Below, in pieces: positions 1,186 to 52,397 of a DNA stretch of 64,000 bases. The position numbers and the translations under genes were made by a program. This stretch comes from Bacillota bacterium. GTDB lineage: Bacteria > Bacillota_I > Bacilli_A > RF39 > UBA660. Where the stretch lies: NCBI GenBank assembly GCA_015059495.1, contig SVAI01000001.1, forward strand, positions 735,811 through 799,810, written 5' to 3'. The stretch's first letter is position 1. Each line of letters begins with the position of its first letter. Under the pieces are notes generated by a model. It was not told where the DNA came from, ran no database searches, and saw only the letters and a program-made list of their open reading frames with translations.

Positions 1186-1210
1186 GAGCCTTTCGGCTCC
1201 AAGGGGGTTT
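1186..1210 (-). terminator. rho-independent terminator downstream of recG
   Basis: Minus-strand GGAGCC-gaaa-GGCTCC hairpin followed by TTTTTTT. It is preceded by the GC-rich motif CCAAAACCCCC. Confidence 0.6.
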
Positions 1211-1318
1211 TGGTTGATTACATAAGTCACATTACATCGTAAAATATGTAACCGATAAATTTTTTATAGCATAACTACTGTTATGCTATATCAATAATAA
1301 TAGATTTTTATAATTTTG

Positions 1319-21144: not shown

Positions 21145-22065
21145 ATGCAAAAGAAAAAATTATTTTTGAAAGGAGAACCAAAACAAACAAAACAAAACAT
21201 TATTTTTATTGATAGTGATTCATTAGTTAAAACAGACACAAATGAATATACTAAACATGATATTAATAAAACTAAAGAATATTTATCAATAAAATATAAT
21301 GATTGTATATATGAGCAAATAAATTCTGAAGATTTAGCTAAATTCTTTTATGATATAGATAATATATCAGTTGGTATTTTAACTGAACTACTAGAACTAT
21401 TCTCTTCTAGTTTAGTTATAACATCTAAAGATAATAAAACAGATGAAGAAATAAAATCATTATTTAGATTATATGGTTTAGATAACTATATTATAGATAT
21501 AATTAGAACTAAAAATTATAATTCTAAATCAAATGATATTAAAGATTATGTTACATCAAATAACATTGAGAATTACATAGTATTTGATGAATATGATTAT
21601 ACTAAAGAATTAGGACATGCCTTTAGAAGAAAATCAGCATCTCTTAGAATTGAAGATATCAAATATAGTGAATTATTATTTAATAAAGATTTAAAAGTTA
21701 TTCAAGATGATACTACTATAAGATTATTATCTAATAATCAAGAAATAATATCATTAAAATATGTTAATTATAAAATACATAATTTAAATATCTTATATTT
21801 AGATTTACAAAGAATATATAATTATGAATATGAAGGTAAAGAATATATTGAATATTTAATTAACTATTTAACTATGACTAATAATGTAGATTATATATTA
21901 TTAGATATGAATCAAATACACGATGAAAACTTAAATATATCTGGTGCTCTAGATCATAATAATATTTATACTATTAATAAAACACATAATGATACCTTAC
22001 ACCAAATATCAGAATGTAAAAAGAAAATTATGAGAATACATGAAAAAGAAAAAAGTGTGATATAA
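21145..22065 (+). CDS. hypothetical protein
   Basis: The ORF track starts at 21079. I place the start at the ATG at 21145, which has an AGGGAGG RBS 8 nt upstream (MQKKKLFLKG...). No recognised domain. IIFIDSD and IVFDEYDY stretches. Confidence 0.4.
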   Translation: MQKKKLFLKGEPKQTKQNIIFIDSDSLVKTDTNEYTKHDINKTKEYLSIKYNDCIYEQINSEDLAKFFYDIDNISVGILTELLELFSSSLVITSKDNKTDEEIKSLFRLYGLDNYIIDIIRTKNYNSKSNDIKDYVTSNNIENYIVFDEYDYTKELGHAFRRKSASLRIEDIKYSELLFNKDLKVIQDDTTIRLLSNNQEIISLKYVNYKIHNLNILYLDLQRIYNYEYEGKEYIEYLINYLTMTNNVDYILLDMNQIHDENLNISGALDHNNIYTINKTHNDTLHQISECKKKIMRIHEKEKSVI

Positions 22066-22080
22066 ATCACACTTTTTATT
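22041..22080. terminator. bidirectional intrinsic terminator shared by the convergent hypothetical gene and rny
   Basis: GTGTGAT-ataa-ATCACAC hairpin with an A-run upstream and a T-run downstream. Both stop codons lie in or next to the hairpin. Confidence 0.6.
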
Positions 22081-23632
22081 TCGCTTCTTCTTGAGCTCTA
22101 GTTTCTCTAATTACTGTAATCTTAATAGTACCAGGATATTGCATTTCTGCTTCAATCTTTTCTTTCATATCTCTAGCAATCTTATAAGATGTAGCATCAT
22201 CAACTTTACCAGGTTCAACCATAACTCTAACTTCTCTACCTGCTTGCATTGCATATGTTTTTTCAACACCTTCAAAAGAATTACCAATTTCTTCTAATTG
22301 TTCTAATCTCTTGATATAGTTTTCTAAACTATCATTTCTTGCACCAGGACGAGATGCACTCATTGTATCTGCTACTTGAACTAAAACAGCAATAATACTC
22401 TTTTGTTCTTCATCACCATGATGTGATGCAATAGCATTAATAACAATATTATCTTCATGGAATTTCTTAGCAATATCTACACCAAGTTCAACATGAGATC
22501 CTTCAACTTCATAATCAATAGCTTTACCAATGTCATGAAGTAAACCAGCACGTTTAGCTAATGTAACATTTTCACCTAATTCACTAGCCATAATACCACA
22601 TAGTTCTGCAACTTCTTTTGAATGTTGTAAAACATTTTGACCATAACTAGTTCTGAAATTTAACTTACCAATTAAATGTACTAATTCTGGATCTACTTTA
22701 GTTAATCCAAGTTCATTAATTGTTTGGTTACCTAATTCAGTAATATGTGCATTAACATCATTACATACTTTATCATATAATTCTTCAATTCTAGCTGGAT
22801 GGATTCTACCATCTCTAATTAAAGTTTCAATGGTTACTTTAGCTATTTCTCTTCTTAATGGATCAAAAGATGATATAACAATAGCTTCAGGTGTATCATC
22901 AATAATTAAATCAACACCAGTAACTGCTTCAATAGTTCTAATATTTCTACCTTCTCTACCAATTAATCTACCTTTCATTTCATCATTAGGTAATGCAATT
23001 GTAGATACAGTTTGTTCAGATGTAACATCATTAGCATATCTTTGCATTGAAGATACAATTAAATTCTTAGCTTTTTCATTAGCTTGTAATTTAGCTTTAC
23101 CTTCTTCTTCTTGAATGTAAGTAGCTATTTCTTTAGACATTTCATCTTCTACTCTTTTCATGATTAAATCATGAGCTTTTTCTTTAGAAAACTTAGCAAT
23201 GTTTTCTAATTGTTTCATTTCTTCTTTTAGAAGTTCATCCATTTTATTTTCTTTTTCTTGCAACTCTTTTTGTTTAACTAATAAATCATTATCTTTTTTA
23301 TCTAAGTTGTCTACTCTAGTTTGTAACATTTCTTCTCTCTTATCAAGATTACGTTCTCTTTGTAGTAATTTATCTTCACTTTCTTTAAGTTCTTGTTTCT
23401 TTTCTCTAATTTCTTTATCAGTTTCTTGTTTTAATCTATAAGATTCTTCCTTTAATTCTAATAAAGCATCTCTTTTTTTCTTTTCAGCTTCCTTTGAAGC
23501 GTTCTCTATTAATTTATTAGCTTTACTCTCTGTTGTTTTATTTCTTATATAACCAATTATAAGTGCAATAACAACTCCAAGTAGTGTCCCAAGAAGAAGA
23601 GTTAAAATGGGCATCACATTAAACTTTTCCAT
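22076..23632 (-). CDS. rny: ribonuclease Y
   Basis: N-terminal TM, coiled coil, KH domain (LIGREGRNIR), HD domain (HDIGK). Confidence 0.9.
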   Translation of the reverse strand: MEKFNVMPILTLLLGTLLGVVIALIIGYIRNKTTESKANKLIENASKEAEKKKRDALLELKEESYRLKQETDKEIREKKQELKESEDKLLQRERNLDKREEMLQTRVDNLDKKDNDLLVKQKELQEKENKMDELLKEEMKQLENIAKFSKEKAHDLIMKRVEDEMSKEIATYIQEEEGKAKLQANEKAKNLIVSSMQRYANDVTSEQTVSTIALPNDEMKGRLIGREGRNIRTIEAVTGVDLIIDDTPEAIVISSFDPLRREIAKVTIETLIRDGRIHPARIEELYDKVCNDVNAHITELGNQTINELGLTKVDPELVHLIGKLNFRTSYGQNVLQHSKEVAELCGIMASELGENVTLAKRAGLLHDIGKAIDYEVEGSHVELGVDIAKKFHEDNIVINAIASHHGDEEQKSIIAVLVQVADTMSASRPGARNDSLENYIKRLEQLEEIGNSFEGVEKTYAMQAGREVRVMVEPGKVDDATSYKIARDMKEKIEAEMQYPGTIKITVIRETRAQEEAK

Positions 23633-23677: not shown

Positions 23678-23706
23678 ATTATAATGACTATTTGTACATT
23701 TATCAA
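23678..23706 (-). promoter_or_regulatory. sigma-A-type promoter for rny
   Basis: Minus strand TTGATA, 17-nt spacer, TATAAT. Confidence 0.45.
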
Positions 23707-23740
23707 GGAAAAAAGGAAAATACTCATGTAAAGACATTAT

Positions 23741-23772
23741 TTGTTGAATATATATAAATTATGTGATATAAA
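23741..23772 (+). promoter_or_regulatory. promoter of convergent small RNA (locus 1)
   Basis: TTGTTG, 17 nt, TGaTATAAA (extended -10). Confidence 0.4.
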
Positions 23773-23779
23773 TTAATTA

Positions 23780-23884
23780 AGGACGACATCCAAACATTAA
23801 TACTGTTCAGGTGTTGTGCCGTATTTTTGGTTTAGCACTCACTGACCAAAACCCCCGTGGGTTAAATCAGTGAGTGCTTTTTTT
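23780..23884 (+). ncRNA. candidate ~105-nt small RNA ending in an intrinsic terminator that abuts the stop codon of the convergent peptide gene (putative type I antitoxin)
   Basis: No ORF. The 5' end begins AAGGACGACAUCC. The 3' end is a 12-bp stem AGCACTCACTGA / TCAGTGAGTGCT (23834..23878) followed by T7. Confidence 0.35.
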
Positions 23885-23963
23885 ATCTATAAATTATAAT
23901 ACCTAGTAAGGTAAAAATAACAACAAATAATAAGATTATTATAAAGTAAACTTTATTACTCAT
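23883..23963 (-). CDS. 26-aa hydrophobic peptide MSNKVYFIIILLFVVIFTLLGIIIYR (putative type I toxin-like membrane peptide)
   Basis: Not in the ORF track. GGAGGG RBS 8 nt upstream of the ATG. An upstream CCUUUC...GGAAGG hairpin can sequester the SD. A paralogue is at 35881..35949. Confidence 0.45.
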   Translation of the reverse strand: MSNKVYFIIILLFVVIFTLLGIIIYR

Positions 23964-24035
23964 AATTATCCCTCCTTCCTTTTAAAGAAAGGCACAAGCA
24001 CACCTGATTTGTATTACATCAGATGCGTCTTTTTT

Positions 24036-24064
24036 CTTATATCACAAGTAATAACAAAAGACAA
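24036..24064 (-). promoter_or_regulatory. promoter for the hydrophobic-peptide mRNA (locus 1)
   Basis: Minus strand TTGTCT, 17 nt, TGaTATAAG. The predicted transcript starts AAGACGCAUCUG. Confidence 0.4.
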
Positions 24065-24186
24065 ATTTCAAAAATATACTCAAACTTAAACAGTTATTTA
24101 ATTATCCATAGATAAAAAAGAATTTATTGATATTAATAAATCTTAATAAATATCTTATTGAACATATTTTCATTCAAAAAATACAA

Positions 24187-24219: not shown

Positions 24220-26121
24220 TTAACTTGTATATAATTTTGAATTAGTTTGAAATAATACTTTGGATAACTTAGCTGCTAAAATCTTTCTACCTACAGTACC
24301 ATCATTAGTAGACATATAGTATTGATGAGATATTTTATCATATCCATACCATAATGCTATTGAATATTCTCTTGAGTATAAACATGCCCAAGAATCTAAA
24401 ATAGCATCTGCAGATAAATTATATTGTCTAATAGCAGTACCACCAACAGTCGATGTTCCAGTCTTAACTGCAACTTCAGTGTTTAAATGATCTATCTTAC
24501 CAATAGCACCTTGGTTTAATGCATATATTAAAATATCATTAATATATTTAGCAGTTTGTAAAGAACATATTTGTGTTCTTTTTATTGTTCTATTATATTC
24601 AATACCTGTTTGTCTATATACTATTTTTGTATATGAGTAAGGTTCAATATAATAACCACCTCTGGCATAAGCACCATATGCTGCGGACATAGTAAGTGGT
24701 GAAACACCTTCAAAAGCTCCAATCGAAGCAGATTCATATAAATTAGGTCCATAATCTATTCCAAAAGAATGAACATAATTAGCAATCTTATTTTTATCCA
24801 CTTGTTGAAATGCTCTTAAAGCAGGTATATTTCTAGATTGAGCTAAAGCTTCTTTAATAGTCATGTTACCTCTATATTGTCTATCAGCATCAGTTATAGG
24901 TGTACCATCTGAATAAGTATATGGTGTATCAGCTAACACTGTACTTGGTGTTGCACCATTATATTCAAATAAAGGTCCATAATCCATAAATGGTTTTATA
25001 GTAGAACCAGGATGTCTTTTAATCATAGTCGCATAATTATATTGTCTAACACCAGTCTTATTTCTACCTGCACCAATTGCAAGTATAGCACCATTATCAA
25101 CACTAGTAATTGCAATACCAGTTTGAATAACATTATCTTTAAAATTTTTAGAATTATTCATTATTTTATTAACAGTAACTTGAATATCAGGATTTAAAGT
25201 TGTATGTATAACCATAGGAACAACATATGGATTATTACCAGTTTCCTTAATTACTTGATCTACTAAAGTATCAATAAAATCTTGATAAGTATTATTATTT
25301 TCTTTATTCTTATCTAACATAGATTCAACAGTAATCTTCTTAGCATCTGCTCTTTGTTCATCGCTAATATATCCATGTCTATACATTAAATCTAATACTG
25401 TATTCTTTCTTTGTTCACATGCTTCAATATCATTATATGGATCATAGGTATAAGGTAAATTAAATAATCCCGCAAGCATCGCAGATTCACTTAATGTTAA
25501 ATCACTAACATTCTTACCAAAATAAGTAAGTGATGCCTGTTTAACACCATATGAATAAGCACCTAAATACTGAGCATTAACATAATATTCTAATATTTCT
25601 TCTTTAGTATACTCTTTTTCAATTTTAAATACTGAAATATAAATATCAGTAAACTTTCTAACTATTCCTTCTATACCTCTAGATTCAGTTGAAGTAAAGA
25701 AGTTCTTTGATAACTGCATAGTAATAGTTGAAGCTCCACCTGCTTTATCATTACCAGATAGTTGTCCTAAAGAAGCTTTAACAAATCTAGGTAAATCAAA
25801 ACCTTTATGTTCAAAGAATCTTGAATCTTCAGCAGATATAATAGCATCAATTAATACTTGTGGTAATTCTTCATATTTAACTAATTCTCTATTTTGTTCA
25901 CCAAGTCTAGCAAACTCAGTATTATCATTATATAAAAGTACAGTTGATTCTTTAGTATATAAATTATCAGGATTAAATTCAGGAGCATTAGTAGCTATGT
26001 AATCAAAGAATAACAAAGCACTAAAAAAAGTAATTATAATAAGACTTAATATAATTTTTAAAAAAATATGTTTCTTCTTTTTCTTAACTACTTTTAGTCT
26101 TGGTAATTCTCTTGGACTCAT
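24220..26121 (-). CDS. class A penicillin-binding protein (glycosyltransferase + transpeptidase)
   Basis: Signal anchor, GT51 motifs (EDSRFFEHKGFD, GASTITMQL), transpeptidase STIKP (SxxK) and KTGTS (KTG). Confidence 0.8.
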   Translation of the reverse strand: MSPRELPRLKVVKKKKKHIFLKIILSLIIITFFSALLFFDYIATNAPEFNPDNLYTKESTVLLYNDNTEFARLGEQNRELVKYEELPQVLIDAIISAEDSRFFEHKGFDLPRFVKASLGQLSGNDKAGGASTITMQLSKNFFTSTESRGIEGIVRKFTDIYISVFKIEKEYTKEEILEYYVNAQYLGAYSYGVKQASLTYFGKNVSDLTLSESAMLAGLFNLPYTYDPYNDIEACEQRKNTVLDLMYRHGYISDEQRADAKKITVESMLDKNKENNNTYQDFIDTLVDQVIKETGNNPYVVPMVIHTTLNPDIQVTVNKIMNNSKNFKDNVIQTGIAITSVDNGAILAIGAGRNKTGVRQYNYATMIKRHPGSTIKPFMDYGPLFEYNGATPSTVLADTPYTYSDGTPITDADRQYRGNMTIKEALAQSRNIPALRAFQQVDKNKIANYVHSFGIDYGPNLYESASIGAFEGVSPLTMSAAYGAYARGGYYIEPYSYTKIVYRQTGIEYNRTIKRTQICSLQTAKYINDILIYALNQGAIGKIDHLNTEVAVKTGTSTVGGTAIRQYNLSADAILDSWACLYSREYSIALWYGYDKISHQYYMSTNDGTVGRKILAAKLSKVLFQTNSKLYTS

Positions 26122-33339: not shown

Positions 33340-35706
33340 TTATTCTGTTCTAAGTGATGTAACAACATCTTGTTTACTAGCAATATGAGCAGGTATTGCT
33401 CCGCCAATTAATGTTAATACCATACTAATTGCTATTAATATAACTGCATGTATAGGATTTAACTCTGCTACATTTTCTAATGTAGTTAAATCATATAATA
33501 GATTATTAATTGGAATAATTAGCAATAATGCTATTATAATACCAAGTAAACCAGACACTAATCCAATAATAACTGTTTCAGCATTAAATACTCTTTTAAT
33601 ATCTTTTTTACGAGCACCTAAGCTTCTTAAAATACCAATCTCTTTAGTTCTTTCTAATACACTAATATATGTAATTATACCAAGCATAATAGATGATACA
33701 ACTAATGATATTGCACTAAATGCAATTAATACTGCAGTAATACCATCCATGATTGATCCAGACATATTACTAATTAATTCAGCTTGATTAATAAATGATA
33801 CTTTATCTTTTTCTTCTTTACCATCATTATATTTATTTAAATATTCAACTATCTTTTCAGTAGAATTAAAATCATTAGGATAAATATATATATAACCAGG
33901 AGTTTCAATAGCCCCTAAATTTAATAATGTCATATGTCTTTCATATTTACCCATTTCAGTAGTATTATCAAATTCTAATCCAGTTAAAACATTATAATCA
34001 GCTTTTTCTTGTTCTTTAACAATCTTAGAATTCTTAGCACTTTCCTTAACATAATCTTGTAATTTATTAGATGTGTATAAAGAAGACTTACTATCTCTTA
34101 ATCCAATTGAACTATATTTATCTTCTTTGATTCTTATAATACCAACTACTTTTAAGGTTAAATTAGAATTATCATTATACATTTTTTCATTTATTACATC
34201 TGGAATAAATAAGTTTCCAATATTTTTATAATATGTATCATTATTAACTAATTTAATAGTACATTTTAAAATATCATCAAATGTATATTCATCACCATTT
34301 AAATTCAAAGCCTTTACTAAATCAGATGAAATCATATTTGATTTAGATACTTCAACTACTATCTCATCTTTTTCAACAGGTAATTTACCTTCTAATACAT
34401 CATAATAATTTTCTAAAATAGTATTTTTATTTTCATCATATTTTATAGGAATAGGCATAATATTAACATTTAATCTATCTAAATTAATATATTTATCTCC
34501 ACTCTTTTGAATAAGATTCATTCTTATACTATTATCTACTAATGAAGATGAAACATATTCTTTAGGAATATTATTAATATATTCCATATAATCATCAGTA
34601 ATAGGATTAATAGAAGTAGCAAATACATTACTCTTATCTTCATCCACCTTTTTAACTACTCTTTCATCAGTAAAATCATTTTCTTCATCTTCTTGAGTCA
34701 TACCTGAATTAGAAGAAAAAGCACTTCTTATAGATTCAGCAGTAATATTTTGTTTTGTAGCACTAATAATTATTGGCATAGCATCACTAACTTGATGTTC
34801 AAAATCATCTATTTTATTTTGAAAACCATTAGATAATGATAGTATTAAAGCAATACCAATAATACCAATTGATGAAGCAAAAGCAGTTATTAATGTTCTA
34901 CCTTTTTTAGTTTTAATATTATTTAATGATAAATATAATGCAGTAAAGAAAGACATCTTAGTCTTCTTTAATTTATATTCACTATCTTCTTCATCACTAT
35001 CATATTTATTAGAATCATTAATAATTTCTCCATCTTTCATATTAATAACTCTAGATGCATAATCTTTAGCTAAATCAGGATTATGAGTAACCATAATAAC
35101 TAACTTATCTTCAGCTATTTCTTTTATTAATTTCATGATTTGAACACTAGTCTTTGTATCTAATGCACCAGTTGGCTCATCAGCTAAAATAATCTCTGGA
35201 TCATTCGCTAAAGCTCTAGCAATAGCAACTCTTTGCATTTGTCCACCAGAAAGTTGATTAGGTTTCTTATGCATATGGTCTCCTAAACCAACCTTTTTTA
35301 ATAATTCTTTAGCTTTCTTTCTTCTTACTTTATATTTCTTACCAGATAAAGTCATACCCATTTCAACATTATCTAAAATGGAAATATGACTAATTAAATT
35401 ATAACTTTGAAATATAAATCCAATAGATTTATTTCTATAAGCATCAAAGTCTTTATCTTTAAACTTTTTAGTAGATTTACCCTTAATTAATAAATCACCA
35501 CTATCATATCTATCTAAACCACCAATTATATTAAGTAATGTTGTTTTACCACTACCAGATGGTCCTAATATAGCAACAAATTCATTTTTTCTAAACTTTA
35601 AATTAATTCCATTTAAAGCATGTTGAATAAATGTACCAGTCTTATAACTTTTCTTAATATTCTTTAACTCTAACATATTATCCCTCCATATCATTAATAA
35701 TAACAT
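33340..35706 (-). CDS. fused ABC transporter ATP-binding protein/permease (MacB/FtsX-type)
   Basis: N-terminal NBD (GPSGSGKTT, LSGGQMQR, ILADEPTGALD) and a C-terminal FtsX-like 4-TM permease with a large extracytoplasmic loop. Confidence 0.8.
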   Translation of the reverse strand: MLLLMIWRDNMLELKNIKKSYKTGTFIQHALNGINLKFRKNEFVAILGPSGSGKTTLLNIIGGLDRYDSGDLLIKGKSTKKFKDKDFDAYRNKSIGFIFQSYNLISHISILDNVEMGMTLSGKKYKVRRKKAKELLKKVGLGDHMHKKPNQLSGGQMQRVAIARALANDPEIILADEPTGALDTKTSVQIMKLIKEIAEDKLVIMVTHNPDLAKDYASRVINMKDGEIINDSNKYDSDEEDSEYKLKKTKMSFFTALYLSLNNIKTKKGRTLITAFASSIGIIGIALILSLSNGFQNKIDDFEHQVSDAMPIIISATKQNITAESIRSAFSSNSGMTQEDEENDFTDERVVKKVDEDKSNVFATSINPITDDYMEYINNIPKEYVSSSLVDNSIRMNLIQKSGDKYINLDRLNVNIMPIPIKYDENKNTILENYYDVLEGKLPVEKDEIVVEVSKSNMISSDLVKALNLNGDEYTFDDILKCTIKLVNNDTYYKNIGNLFIPDVINEKMYNDNSNLTLKVVGIIRIKEDKYSSIGLRDSKSSLYTSNKLQDYVKESAKNSKIVKEQEKADYNVLTGLEFDNTTEMGKYERHMTLLNLGAIETPGYIYIYPNDFNSTEKIVEYLNKYNDGKEEKDKVSFINQAELISNMSGSIMDGITAVLIAFSAISLVVSSIMLGIITYISVLERTKEIGILRSLGARKKDIKRVFNAETVIIGLVSGLLGIIIALLLIIPINNLLYDLTTLENVAELNPIHAVILIAISMVLTLIGGAIPAHIASKQDVVTSLRTE

Positions 35707-35713
35707 ATTTTAT

Positions 35714-35742
35714 TGATTATTAAACTAAATTGTGTTATATAT
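35714..35742 (+). promoter_or_regulatory. promoter of convergent small RNA (locus 2)
   Basis: TTGATT, 17 nt, TGtTATATA. Confidence 0.35.
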
Positions 35743-35747
35743 TATTT

Positions 35748-35825
35748 AGGGACGACATCTAAAGTGATTAATTTAGATGTTTGTGCCTTAGGTTTTTAGG
35801 CATTCATCTTTGAATGTCCTTTTTA
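35748..35825 (+). ncRNA. candidate ~80-nt small RNA, paralogue of the 23780..23884 RNA
   Basis: Begins AGGGACGACAUCU. Contains an ACATCTAAA/TTTAGATGT hairpin and a CATTCA-tctt-TGAATG hairpin followed by T5. No ORF. Confidence 0.3.
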
Positions 35826-35880
35826 ATTTCTAAAAATTATCCATACCAAAACCCCCACGGTTTTATATATGTAACTTATG

Positions 35881-35949
35881 TCAATTTATGATCATAAGAA
35901 TAATTGTTATAATTAATAATATAATTATGACATAAGAATACTTATTCAT
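35881..35949 (-). CDS. 22-aa hydrophobic peptide MNKYSYVIIILLIITIILMIIN (paralogue of the locus-1 peptide)
   Basis: Not in the ORF track. AAGGAGG RBS 8 nt upstream. The SD lies in a CCUUAAU-gaau-AUUAAGG hairpin. It shares the M-x-N-K-x-Y-x-I-I-I-L-L pattern with the locus-1 peptide. Confidence 0.45.
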   Translation of the reverse strand: MNKYSYVIIILLIITIILMIIN

Positions 35950-36017
35950 AAATTATACCTCCTTAATATTCATTAAGGCATAAACATTCACTTAACCAAA
36001 ATAGATGCGTCTACATC

Positions 36018-36046
36018 CTTATAACACATAAGTATTAAAAAAACAA
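36018..36046 (-). promoter_or_regulatory. promoter for the hydrophobic-peptide mRNA (locus 2)
   Basis: Minus strand TTGTTT, 17 nt, TGtTATAAG. The transcript would start ...GUAGACGCAUCUA. Confidence 0.35.
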
Positions 36047-36095
36047 ATTTCAATTTTTTATATAAAACAACCCAATAATTTAATTATCTTATAGC

Positions 36096-36140
36096 AATAA
36101 AAAAATAATTGAATACATCACAATTCAATTATTTTTATTT
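36096..36140. terminator. bidirectional intrinsic terminator
   Basis: AATAATTGAAT-acatcaca-ATTCAATTATT hairpin with flanking A and T runs. Confidence 0.5.
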
Positions 36141-38762: not shown

Positions 38763-40961
38763 TTAATTTGTTTTTAAAGTGAAGTATCCTGGATTACCAT
38801 TTGTAGGATCATCAACACGAGCATATTCTTTGTCAGTATGAGATGAATCATATGTTGTACCTGCTCCACCTTTGATATTTATAGATTTTAGAAACATATT
38901 AGTGCTACTTGTAACTGCCGAAGTATTAAAATTGTTGCCAACATACAACGTTGTTAATGCACTCATTCCATTAAACATTGATAACATATTTGTTACATTT
39001 GAAGTATTAAAATTACTTATGTCCAAACTTGTTATACCTTTCGTTCCAGAAAACATTGCGGACATATTTGTTACATTTGAGGTATCAAGATTACTTACAT
39101 TTAAGTTAGTTAGACTACTCATTCCGGAAAACATTGCAGACATATTTGTTACTTTTGAGGTATTAAGATTACTTACATTTAAATTAGTTAAACTTCTCAT
39201 TCCATAAAACATATCTGACATATTCGTTACATTTGAGGTATTAAAACTACTTATATCAAAGCTAGTCAAACTATTCAATCCATAAAACATATAAGACATA
39301 TTTGTTACATTTGAAGTATTAAAATTACGCAAATCTAAACTTGTTAAATTATTCATTCCATTAAACATTGATGACATATCAGTTACATTTGAAGTATTAA
39401 AATTATGCAAATCTAAACTTGTTAAATTATTCATTCCACTAAACATACTGTTCATATTTTCTACATTTGAAGTATCAAAATTTCTTATATCTAAATTTGT
39501 TAGACCACTCATTAAAGAAAACATACTAGACATATTTGTTACATTTGATGTATTAAAACTACTTATATCTAAATTTGTTAGACTACTCATTTTATAAAAC
39601 ATAAAAGCCATACTTGTAACTTTTGAAGTATCAAAATTACTTATATCAAGTACTGTTAAATTGTTCATATTACTAAACATACTATTCATGCCTGTTACAT
39701 TTGAGGTATCAAAACTACTTAAATCTAACGTTGTTAATGCACTCATTGTAGAAAACATATATGACATAGTTGTTACTTTTGAAGTATCAAAATTTCTTAC
39801 ATCTAAAATTGATAAGCTTTGTAAATTGTCAAACATTGACACCATATTTGTAACTTTTGAGGTATTAAAAGTGCTTACATCTAAATCTGTTAGACTATAC
39901 ATTGCATGAAACATACTGTACATATTTTCTACATTTGAAGTATCAAAATTACTTATATCTAGTACTGTTAAATTGACCAATCCATCAAACATACTACCCA
40001 TATTCGTTACTTTTGAGGTATCAAAATTACTTACATCTAAAGTTGTTAATGCACCCATGCTAGAAAACATTTTAGACATGTCAGTTACTTTTGAAGTATT
40101 AAAGATATTTAAGTCTAGGTTTGTTAAACCCAGCATATGGTAAAACATATATGATGAATCACTATTCATATAAATAGTATCCGCTTCACTATAAAGATAT
40201 ACAGTTCCATTATCAAACCACGCATATACAAGAATAGGTTCATTAAAATCAGAAACTATAACCTTATCAGCACCTTCTGGTGGTGGATTCAAACTTCTCA
40301 CGATAGCTTTTATTGACGTATTTCTATCACTATATGACGCATAAGTACTACCAGTTGATTTTTTAAGATACTGGTTAAAATATTTACCATTTTTTAATAT
40401 TACTTCCTTATAATTCTTTTTTAATGTTGATCTAACTGTTATTTTAGAACTTAAAGTTTTACTTAATACTTCATCATTGTCAGCATCTTCTTTAATCCAT
40501 AATCTTAAGTTATATGATTTAGAGTCCCCTGCTGCTATAGTATCTTCATAGAACTTAGCAGCACTAGATGCATTAGATAACGTGGGTTCAACACTATTAT
40601 TATCGCCATATGTATGAATATGTCCATTAACATCTACTCTTAAATTTTCACCAGCAATTTGACTATCATTTAAAGTTTCCAAATTTATTGATATATCTGC
40701 TGCATGTTCACATATATTTGTTAAAGTAAATTTATATGGAGTTGTATATACACCCTTACCATCTTTCATTGGAAATGAATTAGTTAAACTAATAGCTTGA
40801 CTTCCCTCAGTAAAAGTTATTTCAAAACAATCTGATACTACTACATTTGTACTCTCTTGTGATACATTAAATACCCATAATGCATAAGAAGAACTTAGCA
40901 TTAAAGATAATACTAATAAAATACCAATAACTAATAATGTAATTTTATGTTTCTTCTTCAT
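38763..40961 (-). CDS. DUF285 (PF03382)-repeat surface protein, paralogue A
   Basis: N-terminal signal/TM, then about 17 tandem ~25-aa repeats of the form LTxLDISNFDTSNVTNMSSMFxGM, and a C-terminus GGAGTTYDSSHTDKEYARVDDPTNGNPGYFTLKTN. Confidence 0.75.
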   Translation of the reverse strand: MKKKHKITLLVIGILLVLSLMLSSSYALWVFNVSQESTNVVVSDCFEITFTEGSQAISLTNSFPMKDGKGVYTTPYKFTLTNICEHAADISINLETLNDSQIAGENLRVDVNGHIHTYGDNNSVEPTLSNASSAAKFYEDTIAAGDSKSYNLRLWIKEDADNDEVLSKTLSSKITVRSTLKKNYKEVILKNGKYFNQYLKKSTGSTYASYSDRNTSIKAIVRSLNPPPEGADKVIVSDFNEPILVYAWFDNGTVYLYSEADTIYMNSDSSYMFYHMLGLTNLDLNIFNTSKVTDMSKMFSSMGALTTLDVSNFDTSKVTNMGSMFDGLVNLTVLDISNFDTSNVENMYSMFHAMYSLTDLDVSTFNTSKVTNMVSMFDNLQSLSILDVRNFDTSKVTTMSYMFSTMSALTTLDLSSFDTSNVTGMNSMFSNMNNLTVLDISNFDTSKVTSMAFMFYKMSSLTNLDISSFNTSNVTNMSSMFSLMSGLTNLDIRNFDTSNVENMNSMFSGMNNLTSLDLHNFNTSNVTDMSSMFNGMNNLTSLDLRNFNTSNVTNMSYMFYGLNSLTSFDISSFNTSNVTNMSDMFYGMRSLTNLNVSNLNTSKVTNMSAMFSGMSSLTNLNVSNLDTSNVTNMSAMFSGTKGITSLDISNFNTSNVTNMLSMFNGMSALTTLYVGNNFNTSAVTSSTNMFLKSINIKGGAGTTYDSSHTDKEYARVDDPTNGNPGYFTLKTN

Positions 40962-50432: not shown

Positions 50433-52397
50433 TTATGTTGTTTTTAAAGTAAATAACCCAGGTTTTCCATTATCTGGATCATCTACTCTAGCTAGCTTAG
50501 TATTTATATAACCAACACTTGATTTAGTTGTACCAGCACCACCAATTAAATTATCACATCCAGCAAATACACTGTTAAAATAATCAGCGCTTATTCTTTC
50601 AGTATCCCATTCACTAGAAACATATATAGTTTCTACAGATGTCATATCTTTAAACATATTATTAATATTACTAAGAGAAGAAGTATTAAAACTACTTAAA
50701 TCTAAAACTTTTAATGTTGAAGCACCCTCAAACATACTTGCCATACCTGTAACTTTAGATGTATTAAAACTTGTTATATTTAAAGATGTTAGTTTTACCA
50801 TATTACGAAACATCCATGACATATCTGTTACATTTGAGGTATCAAAATTAGATAAATCCAATTCTTCTAACTTAGTATCTCCGCTAAACATTACTGACAT
50901 ATAGTTTACATTTGATGTATTAAAAGAACTTAGATTTATACTTTTTAATTCATGCATATCACTAAACATACTCGTCATATTCTCAACTTTGGAAGTATCA
51001 AAATTACTCAAATCTAAGGATTGTAATGCCCATAAATTAGAAAACATATAAGACATATTTGTTACATTTGATGTATTAAAATTACTTATATCTAAATATG
51101 TTAACGAGCCTAAATCATCAAACATATTACTCATATTTTCAACCTTAGAAGTATCAAAATTACTTAAATCTAAGGATTGTAATGTCCATAAATGAGAAAA
51201 CATATTTGACATATCAATAACATTAGATGTATCAAAACTACTTAAATCTAAATAAACCAATTCAGTATTATTATCTCCCTTATCAAACATCCATGACATA
51301 TCAGTAACTTTTGAGGTATCAAAGTTAGATAAATCTAATCTTTCAATACTACATAGATACGAAAACATATGAGACATGTTTTCTACATTGGAAGTATCAA
51401 AGGAACTAATATTAAGATTAATAAGACCCTGATCTTCATTAAACATACTACTCATATCAGTTACATTAGACGTATCAAAATTAGATAAGTCCAATGTCTC
51501 TAAATGAATCATACCATAAAACATACTAGACATATCAGTAACTATAGATGAATCAAATCTAGACACATCAATTTCACTAAGATTGTAAAGAGATGAAAAC
51601 ATATGTGACGAATCTTCGTTTAAAAATATTTTAGGACTATCACTATAAATATAAATAATACCATTTTCAAACCACATCAAAACGTCACTTTTTGAATCAG
51701 CAGTAGAAACTACAACATAAGTATCATTAGAAGGAGCTTCTTGAGAAAATAATACTTTTTCAACATTACCATTATTTCCAGATAATTCATATATTTTATC
51801 ATTAATATACTGACCATCCATAAGTTTAGCACCAACTTCTACTCGCTTTAATCTAGAAATTACAACTACTTTTGAATAAAACTCCTTATCAGCACTTTGC
51901 TCAACTGTAGAATTTTCATCAATGTATAATCTTAAATCAAAGCTTTTTGAAGTATTACCTTTTAAAGAACCTGACTTGATATTTTTTGATGATATTGCAT
52001 TATTATTTATTATAGAACTATTATCATTATTTTCTATATCCCCTAAATTAAACGGAGCAAACTGATTAATTTTTACTTTAACAGCACTTAAATCAATAGT
52101 ACTACCATCTAAAGTTTCAAGATTAACATCATAGTCTATATCATAATTACACACATTACTAATAGTAAAAGTATATGGATCTAATTCTCTTGCATCTTTA
52201 TCACTTAAAGGTATAGTGTTTGTTAAGTTAATCGCATTACCATCACTAAAAGTTATTTCAAAGCAGTCAGTTCTAACAACATTACTACCACTCTGTGACA
52301 CGTTAAAAATATAATATGCATAAGATATACCTATTAATATACTAGTAACTAAAAAGATACCTATTACACATAATAGTATTTTACTCTTCTTACTCAT
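50433..52397 (-). CDS. DUF285 (PF03382)-repeat surface protein, paralogue B
   Basis: N-terminal signal/TM (homologous to the N-terminus of paralogue A), about 13 LDLSNFDTSNVTDMSxMF repeats, and a C-terminus GGAGTTKSSVGYINTKLARVDDPDNGKPGLFTLKTT. Confidence 0.75.
   Translation of the reverse strand: MSKKSKILLCVIGIFLVTSILIGISYAYYIFNVSQSGSNVVRTDCFEITFSDGNAINLTNTIPLSDKDARELDPYTFTISNVCNYDIDYDVNLETLDGSTIDLSAVKVKINQFAPFNLGDIENNDNSSIINNNAISSKNIKSGSLKGNTSKSFDLRLYIDENSTVEQSADKEFYSKVVVISRLKRVEVGAKLMDGQYINDKIYELSGNNGNVEKVLFSQEAPSNDTYVVVSTADSKSDVLMWFENGIIYIYSDSPKIFLNEDSSHMFSSLYNLSEIDVSRFDSSIVTDMSSMFYGMIHLETLDLSNFDTSNVTDMSSMFNEDQGLINLNISSFDTSNVENMSHMFSYLCSIERLDLSNFDTSKVTDMSWMFDKGDNNTELVYLDLSSFDTSNVIDMSNMFSHLWTLQSLDLSNFDTSKVENMSNMFDDLGSLTYLDISNFNTSNVTNMSYMFSNLWALQSLDLSNFDTSKVENMTSMFSDMHELKSINLSSFNTSNVNYMSVMFSGDTKLEELDLSNFDTSNVTDMSWMFRNMVKLTSLNITSFNTSKVTGMASMFEGASTLKVLDLSSFNTSSLSNINNMFKDMTSVETIYVSSEWDTERISADYFNSVFAGCDNLIGGAGTTKSSVGYINTKLARVDDPDNGKPGLFTLKTT

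Follow-up and report, generated by a model that had tools for sequence, protein, structure and literature searches.

Type I toxins are peptides of fewer than 60 amino acids (aa) with one transmembrane (TM) helix (PMC6562991), and the class features sequestration of the toxin's Shine-Dalgarno (SD) sequence and convergent promoters (PMC7472228, PMC6562991). In bsrG/SR4 and txpA/RatA the antitoxin RNA pairs with the 3' part of the toxin mRNA, from the loop of a terminator onwards, and the duplex is cleaved by RNase III; SR4 additionally tightens the sequestration of the bsrG SD (PMC6562991, PMC3834814). The par/Fst-RNA II system has convergent promoters, a shared hairpin and an intramolecular stem-loop that hides the SD, and toxins of the Fst/Ldr group carry a PXXXG motif and a charged C-terminus (PMC7472228). 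The full-length toxin mRNAs of hok/Sok and aapA1/IsoA1 are inactive, locked by a 5'-3' fold-back (PMC5416894). Here we describe a cassette with much of this anatomy, present in two diverged copies within a 64,000-nucleotide stretch (hereafter the window) of a Bacillota bacterium, assembly GCA_015059495.1, contig SVAI01000001.1, positions 735,811 to 799,810. From its sequence we think it probable, though well short of certain, that the cassette represents a new family of type I toxin-antitoxin-like modules, one whose layout comes nearest to those of bsrG/SR4 and txpA/RatA but which belongs to neither.

The window has a G+C content of 25.4%, and copy 1 (23741-24064) lies between a PBP1A-like gene (26121..24220, minus strand) and rny, the gene for RNase Y (23632..22076, minus strand). 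Its parts, including a putative small RNA (sRNA) and the open reading frame (ORF) of a peptide, are as follows.

23735..24155: whole copy 1 cassette, about 420 bp, an indel relative to strains with identical RNase Y (occupied in L001 and L003, empty in L002)
23744..23772, plus strand: putative sRNA promoter, TTGAAT, 17 nt, TGTGaTATAAA; kept in copy 2 and in an sRNA-only allele
23781..23884, plus strand: putative antisense sRNA of about 104 nt, beginning GGACGACAUCC, with 5' hairpin, linker and terminator
23846..23856, minus strand: GGGGGTTTTGG, an invariant motif within the terminator loop, 27 nt past the peptide stop codon; the sRNA strand reads ACCAAAACCCCC
23883..23963, minus strand: ORF of a 26-aa hydrophobic peptide, MSNKVYFIIILLFVVIFTLLGIIIYR, stop codon included
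23970..23992, minus strand: SD-sequestering hairpin of the minimum free energy (MFE) fold; SD GGAGGG at 23975-23970, 6 nt before the ATG
23991..24030, minus strand: peptide-mRNA 5' element (AGACGCAUC...UUGUGCC), the right arm of an inverted repeat
24036..24064, minus strand: putative peptide-mRNA promoter, TTGTCT (24064-24059), 17 nt, TGTGaTATAAG (24046-24036); same spacing and boxes in copy 2

The peptide gene described by an earlier, sequence-only reading of this locus, a hydrophobic 26-aa minus-strand ORF (23963..23883) behind a GGAGGG ribosome-binding site, is present as described. That reading also proposed that the leader can hide the SD, and the MFE fold of the 5' untranslated region (UTR) indeed contains its CCUUUC/GGAAGG pairing as part of a 9(+4)-bp helix. 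The predicted mRNA start is near A24030, and the resulting 67-nt leader, which begins AGACGCAUC, folds in isolation into a 5' hairpin followed by the helix that buries the SD. Both structures are more stable on the minus strand than on the plus strand (-13.0 vs -5.9 kcal/mol for the 5' hairpin and -9.3 vs -3.1 kcal/mol for the SD hairpin), and in the structural ensemble the SD has a mean P(unpaired) of 0.18 and the AUG one of 0.02.

Convergent with this gene is the ORF-less RNA that had been predicted on the plus strand, with its 12-bp-stem terminator. It is about 104 nt long and consists of a 40-nt 5' hairpin (23781-23820, the left repeat arm), a variable 13-nt linker and the terminator, whose stem AGCACTCACTGA (23834-23845) / TCAGTGAGTGCT (23867-23878) encloses a 21-nt loop; the T run reaches 23884 and thus overlaps the TAA stop codon of the peptide gene (23883-23885) by 2 nt. 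The fold of this region (107 nt) has a free energy of -39.7 kcal/mol, z = -5.7. Short ORFs that follow a GGGGG motif, with a GTG or ATG 7-9 nt downstream, were considered and rejected as coding sequence, neither their length nor their frame being conserved. The plus-strand promoter had been read as TTGTTG at 17 nt from an extended -10 TATAAA; the -10 box stands, but TTGTTG sits at a spacing of 20 nt, and the -35 hexamer that lies 17 nt away is TTGAAT (23744-23749), which overlaps it and whose equivalent in copy 2, TTGATT, has the same spacing. The extended -10 boxes of the two RNAs are similar, as had been noted (TGTGATATAAA at 23762-23772, plus strand; TGTGATATAAG at 24046-24036, minus strand), GACG(A)CATC opens both putative RNAs, and the extended -10 TG is retained in TATGATATAAA variants of the sRNA promoter. 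A simple consensus promoter/terminator scanner listed neither of the two copy 1 cassette promoters nor the plus-strand terminator, because neither -10 box ends in T and the terminator has a loop of 21 nt. The 29-nt pattern of promoter plus 5' end has exactly two matches in the window, at the two copies, with 0.00 expected. The arrangement at copy 1 is more than chance. The TGTGATATAAA box by itself has five matches in the window against 2.7 expected, the fifth, identical to the -10 region of the copy 1 sRNA, lying at 22056-22066 (plus strand) shortly past the end of the rny coding sequence, where it could act as a promoter or simply match by chance.

Among four orthologous variants of the copy 1 sRNA, which forms 30 pairs, no stem pair is broken, and the changes fall in the linker and the inner loop. 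Variable columns make up 2/62 of stem positions and 11/43 of unpaired positions (p = 0.0014), a distribution that supports purifying selection on the sRNA stems at the level of sequence. Because of G-U pairs, the hairpins are more stable on the strand that is predicted to be transcribed: the sRNA 5' hairpin has -12.3 kcal/mol on the plus strand and -9.5 on the minus strand in copy 1, and -14.5 and -9.7, respectively, in copy 2. Only on the plus strand are the terminator hairpins followed by U runs. In these folding calculations the strand asymmetry fits the predicted directions of transcription.

The second copy was found by motif search and has the following parts.

35692..36110: whole copy 2 cassette, between a 98-aa ORF and a gene for a fused ABC ATPase/FtsX-permease
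35713..35741, plus strand: sRNA promoter, TTGATT, 17 nt, TGTGtTATATA
35750..35824, plus strand: putative sRNA of about 75 nt, beginning GGACGACAUC, with 5' hairpin (35750-35787), terminator hairpin (35799-35818) and T5
35846..35856, minus strand: GGGGGTTTTGG, 25 nt past the stop codon and beyond the predicted terminator of the copy 2 sRNA
35881..35949, minus strand: ORF of 22 aa, MNKYSYVIIILLIITIILMIIN, with SD AGGAGG at 35963-35958
36018..36046, minus strand: peptide-mRNA promoter, TTGTTT, 17 nt, TGTGtTATAAG; predicted start near 36012

Copy 2 repeats the parts of copy 1, in unchanged order but diverged sequence, and the similarity covers 23725-24125 of copy 1. Because the copies differ widely elsewhere, the blocks that they share are meaningful. 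The predicted peptide mRNA begins AGACGCAUCU, and its SD again lies inside a hairpin (35978-35961), in which the CCUUUC/GGAAGG pairing of copy 1 is replaced by CCUUAAU/AUUAAGG, a compensatory change. The peptide core Y..IIILL is common to both copies and is written with different synonymous codons (ATA/ATT, ATC/ATA, TAC/TAT, AAA/AAG). The copy 2 sRNA folds with z = -4.9, and its terminator was detected by the scanner. Each peptide has about 20 consecutive hydrophobic residues and one predicted TM helix; both are proline-free, with C-terminal ends YR, YK or N, and searches of Pfam and NCBIfam with the two peptides returned zero matches. Measured against the class, then, both peptides are small, hydrophobic and single-TM, and the SD is paired in the MFE fold and ensemble both of copy 1 and of the isolated copy 2 5' UTR. 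The sRNA gene has, in silico, promoter, structure, terminator and stem conservation, and its complementarity to the peptide mRNA needs read-through past the stop codon. The elements of the proposed type I toxin-antitoxin-like candidate that can be tested computationally thus hold up: the paralogue, the compensatory SD hairpin, the strand asymmetry, the stem conservation and the series of alleles described below.

Two further observations touch on the paralogues. The copy 1 sRNA segment UCACUGACCAAAA (23834-23860) is nearly complementary to UUUUGGUUAAGUGA (35990-36003), a part of the 5' arm of the peptide mRNA of copy 2, and the predicted duplex of copy 1 sRNA with copy 2 mRNA has -45.5 kcal/mol, against -29.1 +/- 4.6 for shuffles; on this modelling there may be cross-talk between the copies, which could explain why an orphan sRNA is kept in L078, one of the metagenome contigs described below. 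The invariant motif GGGGGTTTTGG occurs a third time in the window, at 1203-1213 (plus strand), in the spacer between recG and a 164-aa ORF (1178-1260), with 0.12 occurrences expected at up to one mismatch. On the minus strand of that spacer, ACCAAAACCCCC stands immediately 5' of the recG terminator GGAGCC-GAAA-GGCTCC + T7, and nearby CATAAGTCACAT resembles CATAAGTTACAT, which adjoins the motif in copy 2; a hydrophobic ORF is absent from the spacer. The motif at this site could belong to a third, degenerate element or be one that marks 3' ends in general.

Metagenome contigs of 0.5-1.26 Mb encode proteins identical to the RNase Y and the ABC transporter whose genes adjoin the two copies, several of the carrier samples being sheep or cattle rumen assemblies (SHIW14, WILK20); the host is an uncultured rumen member of Bacilli. 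Contigs whose RNase Y is identical to that of the window carry the cassette in two cases (L001, L003) and lack it in L002 and six similar places. At L002 the sequence 'tcgttac' stands in place of the roughly 420 bp corresponding to window positions 23735-24155, and a clean target duplication is lacking. The copy 1 cassette occurs in strains whose RNase Y is 99% identical (L080-L089), and in relatives at 97, 95, 91, 88 and 84% RNase Y identity it is absent from a spacer of 94-135 bp. A third allele, on metagenome contig L078, retains the sRNA gene complete from promoter to terminator, with the peptide promoter, leader and ORF deleted; the converse allele, with the peptide gene alone, did not turn up among the loci compared. 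L077, L079, L103 and L111 have copy 2, and the next species, L112, lacks it. The sequence anatomy of the cassette, its conservation in two paralogues and its gain and loss among strains are matters of direct observation, and the cassette is accessory.

The gene rny has its own promoter outside the cassette:

23678..23706, minus strand: rny promoter, TTGATA-17-TATAAT, an 11/12 scanner match, kept at the empty sites L002 and L091

Because strains with identical RNase Y carry or lack the cassette and distant relatives lack it, the adjacency to rny is incidental. The sequence-only reading had offered the alternative of a leader peptide that attenuates rny; this presence/absence polymorphism, together with the retention of the rny promoter at occupied and empty sites alike, refutes it.

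We propose the following working model for the cassette. The extended -10 promoter on the minus strand would produce an mRNA for a single-helix membrane peptide of 22-26 aa, presumed to be the toxin, which would be poorly translated with its SD and start codon buried in local helices. From the near-identical plus-strand promoter would come an RNA of about 75-105 nt that lacks a conserved ORF, opens with a hairpin and ends at an intrinsic terminator; it would be antisense to the stretch immediately following the peptide ORF. Transcription of the peptide gene probably continues through the sRNA gene, in which case the 3' part of the peptide mRNA would be fully complementary to the sRNA and the transcript would run on toward rny (copy 1) or the ABC gene (copy 2). 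Pairing probably begins at the large complementary loops, and the long duplex would be cut by RNase III, or the mRNA refolded, or both, so that the peptide would be kept off as in bsrG/SR4 and txpA/RatA.

A number of points weigh against this model. The transcripts, the toxicity of the peptides and the interaction between the RNAs are what we infer from sequence. No intrinsic terminator for the peptide mRNA is evident on the minus strand, where the 12-bp hairpin is followed by AAACCAAAAAU; the hairpin has its T run on the plus side only and continues on the minus side as AAACCAAAAAT, so the 3' overlap of mRNA and sRNA rests on read-through. The predicted end of the copy 2 sRNA falls about 57 nt short of the copy 2 ORF. 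Covariation is thin because the comparison comprises just two paralogues plus a few orthologues that are almost identical. Changes in the peptides within lineages run at about seven nonsynonymous to two synonymous, a roughly neutral ratio, so that purifying selection is not shown by the count alone; most of the variants are conservative (V15I, R26K, F7Y, V7I), those of the copy 1 orthologues comprising V15I, R26K, F7Y and two synonymous changes. In one strain (L111:1228-1296) the copy 2 peptide is MNKYSYIIIILLIIKIILMILK, with a lysine in the middle of the helix (T15K), which may be a natural inactivating variant. Searches of Rfam, Pfam and NCBIfam found no homology to a known toxin or antitoxin family, and homology to bsrG/SR4 and txpA/RatA in particular is lacking (Rfam BsrG, 12.4 bits against a gathering threshold of 55; no protein family match). 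In folding simulations of sRNA binding the accessibility of the copy 1 SD did not change (0.18 and 0.19). Finally, the copy 2 cassette ends about 25 nt from the SD of the ABC gene, and no separate promoter for that gene is evident between the two (window 35676-35750).

The same anatomy could belong to a non-toxic small membrane protein, for instance a modulator of a transporter or kinase, held under a cis-antisense regulator and involving no addiction or toxin behaviour. In-silico features do not separate toxic from non-toxic peptides, many hydrophobic bacterial peptides of 20-30 aa are regulators, and the peptide tolerates T15K in one strain. A regulator of this sort, however, would not be expected to be duplicated at two unrelated sites, to come and go among near-identical strains and leave an sRNA-only allele, or to lack a conserved partner gene, with rny at one site and the ABC transporter at the other; we regard this explanation as unlikely.

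The position of copy 2 also bears on a cis-regulatory interpretation, in which the cassette would be a leader, an attenuator or an inserted promoter controlling the downstream rny or ABC transporter gene. The peptide gene of each copy is oriented toward its downstream neighbour, with no evident minus-strand terminator, and in a related species without the cassette (L112:1340-1500) the ABC gene has a TTGACA-17-TATAAA promoter of its own. Because no such promoter is evident here, read-through from the cassette may drive the transporter. Yet the two downstream genes are unrelated, rny has a strong promoter of its own and is intact with an unchanged product in cassette-free strains, and an allele that retains only the sRNA makes no sense for a leader, all of which leaves cis-regulation as the function of the cassette very improbable.

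The imperfect inverted repeat of about 40 bp that had been reported around the ORF is confirmed, with arms at 23781-23820 and 23991-24030. Their duplex has -37.4 kcal/mol, against -13.7 +/- 3.2 for shuffles, and the repeat exists in the DNA because the 5' elements of the two RNAs are homologous. Arm duplexes within a copy (-37.4 and -31.3 kcal/mol) are more stable than those formed across copies (-28.4 and -21.4), and this greater likeness within copies than between them reflects either concerted evolution or selection for complementarity. In a read-through peptide mRNA the 5' and 3' ends would pair over a long stretch (z = -9.1 and -6.6 for the whole RNAs), with the sRNA as a competitor for the same 3' arm. 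The repeat might then itself be the mechanism: the read-through mRNA would lock itself by a 5'-3' fold-back of about 40 bp, the 5' domain of the antitoxin, mimicking the 5' end of the mRNA, would displace it from the 3' arm, and in copy 2 the freed anti-SD would close the SD. We hold this elaboration to be doubtful because the orthologue changes point both ways and the modelled switch works only in copy 2. Of these changes, CAUCUGAUG to CAUCCAAUG disrupts the local hairpin and strengthens the long-range helix from -37.4 to -40.6 kcal/mol, and the L077 change GACGCAUC to GACACAUC improves a local pair and breaks a long-range one; in copy 2 binding of the sRNA lowers P(unpaired) of the SD from 0.61 to 0.26. 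Another possibility is that the shared 5' element is recognised on both RNAs by one protein or RNase.

A repeat composed of two hairpins, in two copies with insertion polymorphism and with arms that evolve in concert within each copy, is also what a non-coding mobile repeat would present, a nested palindrome of the MITE or REPIN kind in which ORF and promoters would be incidental. The inverted repeat is nonetheless internal, the indel extending about 125 bp past one arm and about 45 bp past the other, and the comparison with L002 shows no clean target-site duplication. The ORF, its well-spaced strong SD, both promoters and both terminators are kept in widely diverged paralogues, and the roughly 84 kb searched of this genome contain only two copies, against none in some 100 kb of sequence from relatives. 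A purely mobile repeat is accordingly quite improbable.

Compared with described systems, the toxin-antitoxin-like cassette resembles bsrG/SR4 and txpA/RatA in its convergent genes, hydrophobic one-TM peptide and partly sequestered SD, and the likeness claimed by the sequence-only reading stands as one of layout and not of homology. The pairing of the antitoxin with the 3' part of the toxin mRNA is matched here only if the peptide mRNA reads through; the geometry would then permit the overlap of about 100 nt that the 3' ends of TxpA/BsrG have with RatA/SR4, but as predicted the sRNA covers only 2 nt of the stop codon and the 3' overlap is conjectural. In contrast to these systems, the peptides are 22-26 aa long rather than 38-59 aa and have no charged C-terminal tail, the peptide mRNA has no evident terminator, the two RNAs share homologous 5' elements, and there is no prophage context.

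With par/Fst-RNA II (Enterococcus pAD1 and chromosomal homologues) the cassette has in common convergent promoters, an intergenic hairpin with complementary loops that could nucleate pairing, and an SD-hiding stem-loop. The PXXXG motif and charged C-terminus of Fst/Ldr are absent from the cassette peptides, which have no Pfam or NCBIfam match. The direct repeats DRa/DRb of par provide 5' complementarity, whereas the repeats of the cassette are inverted and the 5' ends of its RNAs are therefore alike and not complementary; a search for Fst-like trans pairing between sRNA and 5' UTR plus ORF gave a duplex no better than shuffles. Nor is the bidirectional terminator of par matched, the cassette hairpin having a U run on one side only. 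On sequence, membership of the bsrG/SR4, txpA/RatA or Fst/par families is not supported. Like the mRNAs of hok/Sok and aapA1/IsoA1, a read-through cassette mRNA would close via a 5'-3' helix of about 40 bp; in those systems, however, the antitoxin targets the 5' or translation-initiation region of a 3'-processed mRNA, whereas the cassette sRNA is antisense to the 3' arm, and their hosts are Proteobacteria and Campylobacterota, with no homology to the cassette. The Ibs/Sib systems of E. coli have almost wholly hydrophobic toxins of 18-19 aa in multiple chromosomal copies with cis-antisense RNAs, Sib overlapping the ibs ORF fully. The cassette likewise combines a very short hydrophobic peptide, multiple copies and a cis-antisense RNA, but it differs in having no full overlap with the ORF, no sequence relationship and a host of another phylum.

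Database searches bear on how widely the family is distributed. A scan of the window at the Rfam gathering thresholds returned only two tRNAs, and a permissive scan of the locus only sub-threshold noise. In genome contigs of GTDB representatives, the pattern AGACGCATCT..TGCCTT..AGGAGG had 17 matches, most in unrelated taxa of higher G+C content; the three that looked credible (L006, L012, L020) proved on inspection to be chance matches in coding-like sequence. Absence from the GTDB representatives is weak evidence because the pattern would miss the variants AGACGCATCC and TGACGCATCT found later. A metagenome scan with the sRNA promoter and 5'-end pattern recovered only three loci, all from close relatives, and under-sampled the distribution because the pattern misses the common TATGATATAAA variant; both of these large DNA scans used exact patterns that are too strict in view of such variants. 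A scan of viral contigs gave 56 matches, all above 40% G+C and all attributable to chance, and blastn of the cassette against plasmids and phages gave only AT-rich matches of E ~0.008. One match on a Lactiplantibacillus plasmid (L110:309-413), about 200 bp from a 34-aa 'putative holin-like toxin', is AT-rich and not homologous. The search for additional copies that had been suggested succeeded in so far as it yielded the diverged second copy; beyond that, neither nhmmer nor a covariance model built on the shared 5' element detected another copy, whether in the window, in 20 kb of added flanking sequence or in some 100 kb of DNA from relatives.

Two features lie apart from the cassette. Tandem arrays of a 78-nt (26-codon) repeat, 60-81% identical, occur at 38873-40186 and 50630-51562, about 11 kb apart, and are presumably repeat domains of large surface proteins. 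Some 4-10 kb beyond window position 1 (L104:160-5700) are genes for an NlpC/P60 protein and a VirD4/TraG-type coupling protein, which suggests a remnant of a conjugative element nearby.

For the biology of the host, the hydrophobic ORF upstream of rny is not a regulator of rny, and the cassette may supply read-through transcription to the neighbouring ABC transporter gene. Homologous 5' elements on toxin mRNA and antitoxin would be an unusual layout and could reveal control by fold-back and competition. The natural allelic series of full cassette, antitoxin only and empty site is useful for questions of module function. If our interpretation is correct, the cassette would constitute a type I toxin-antitoxin family in an uncultured, small-genome lineage of rumen Bacilli, where none has been described.

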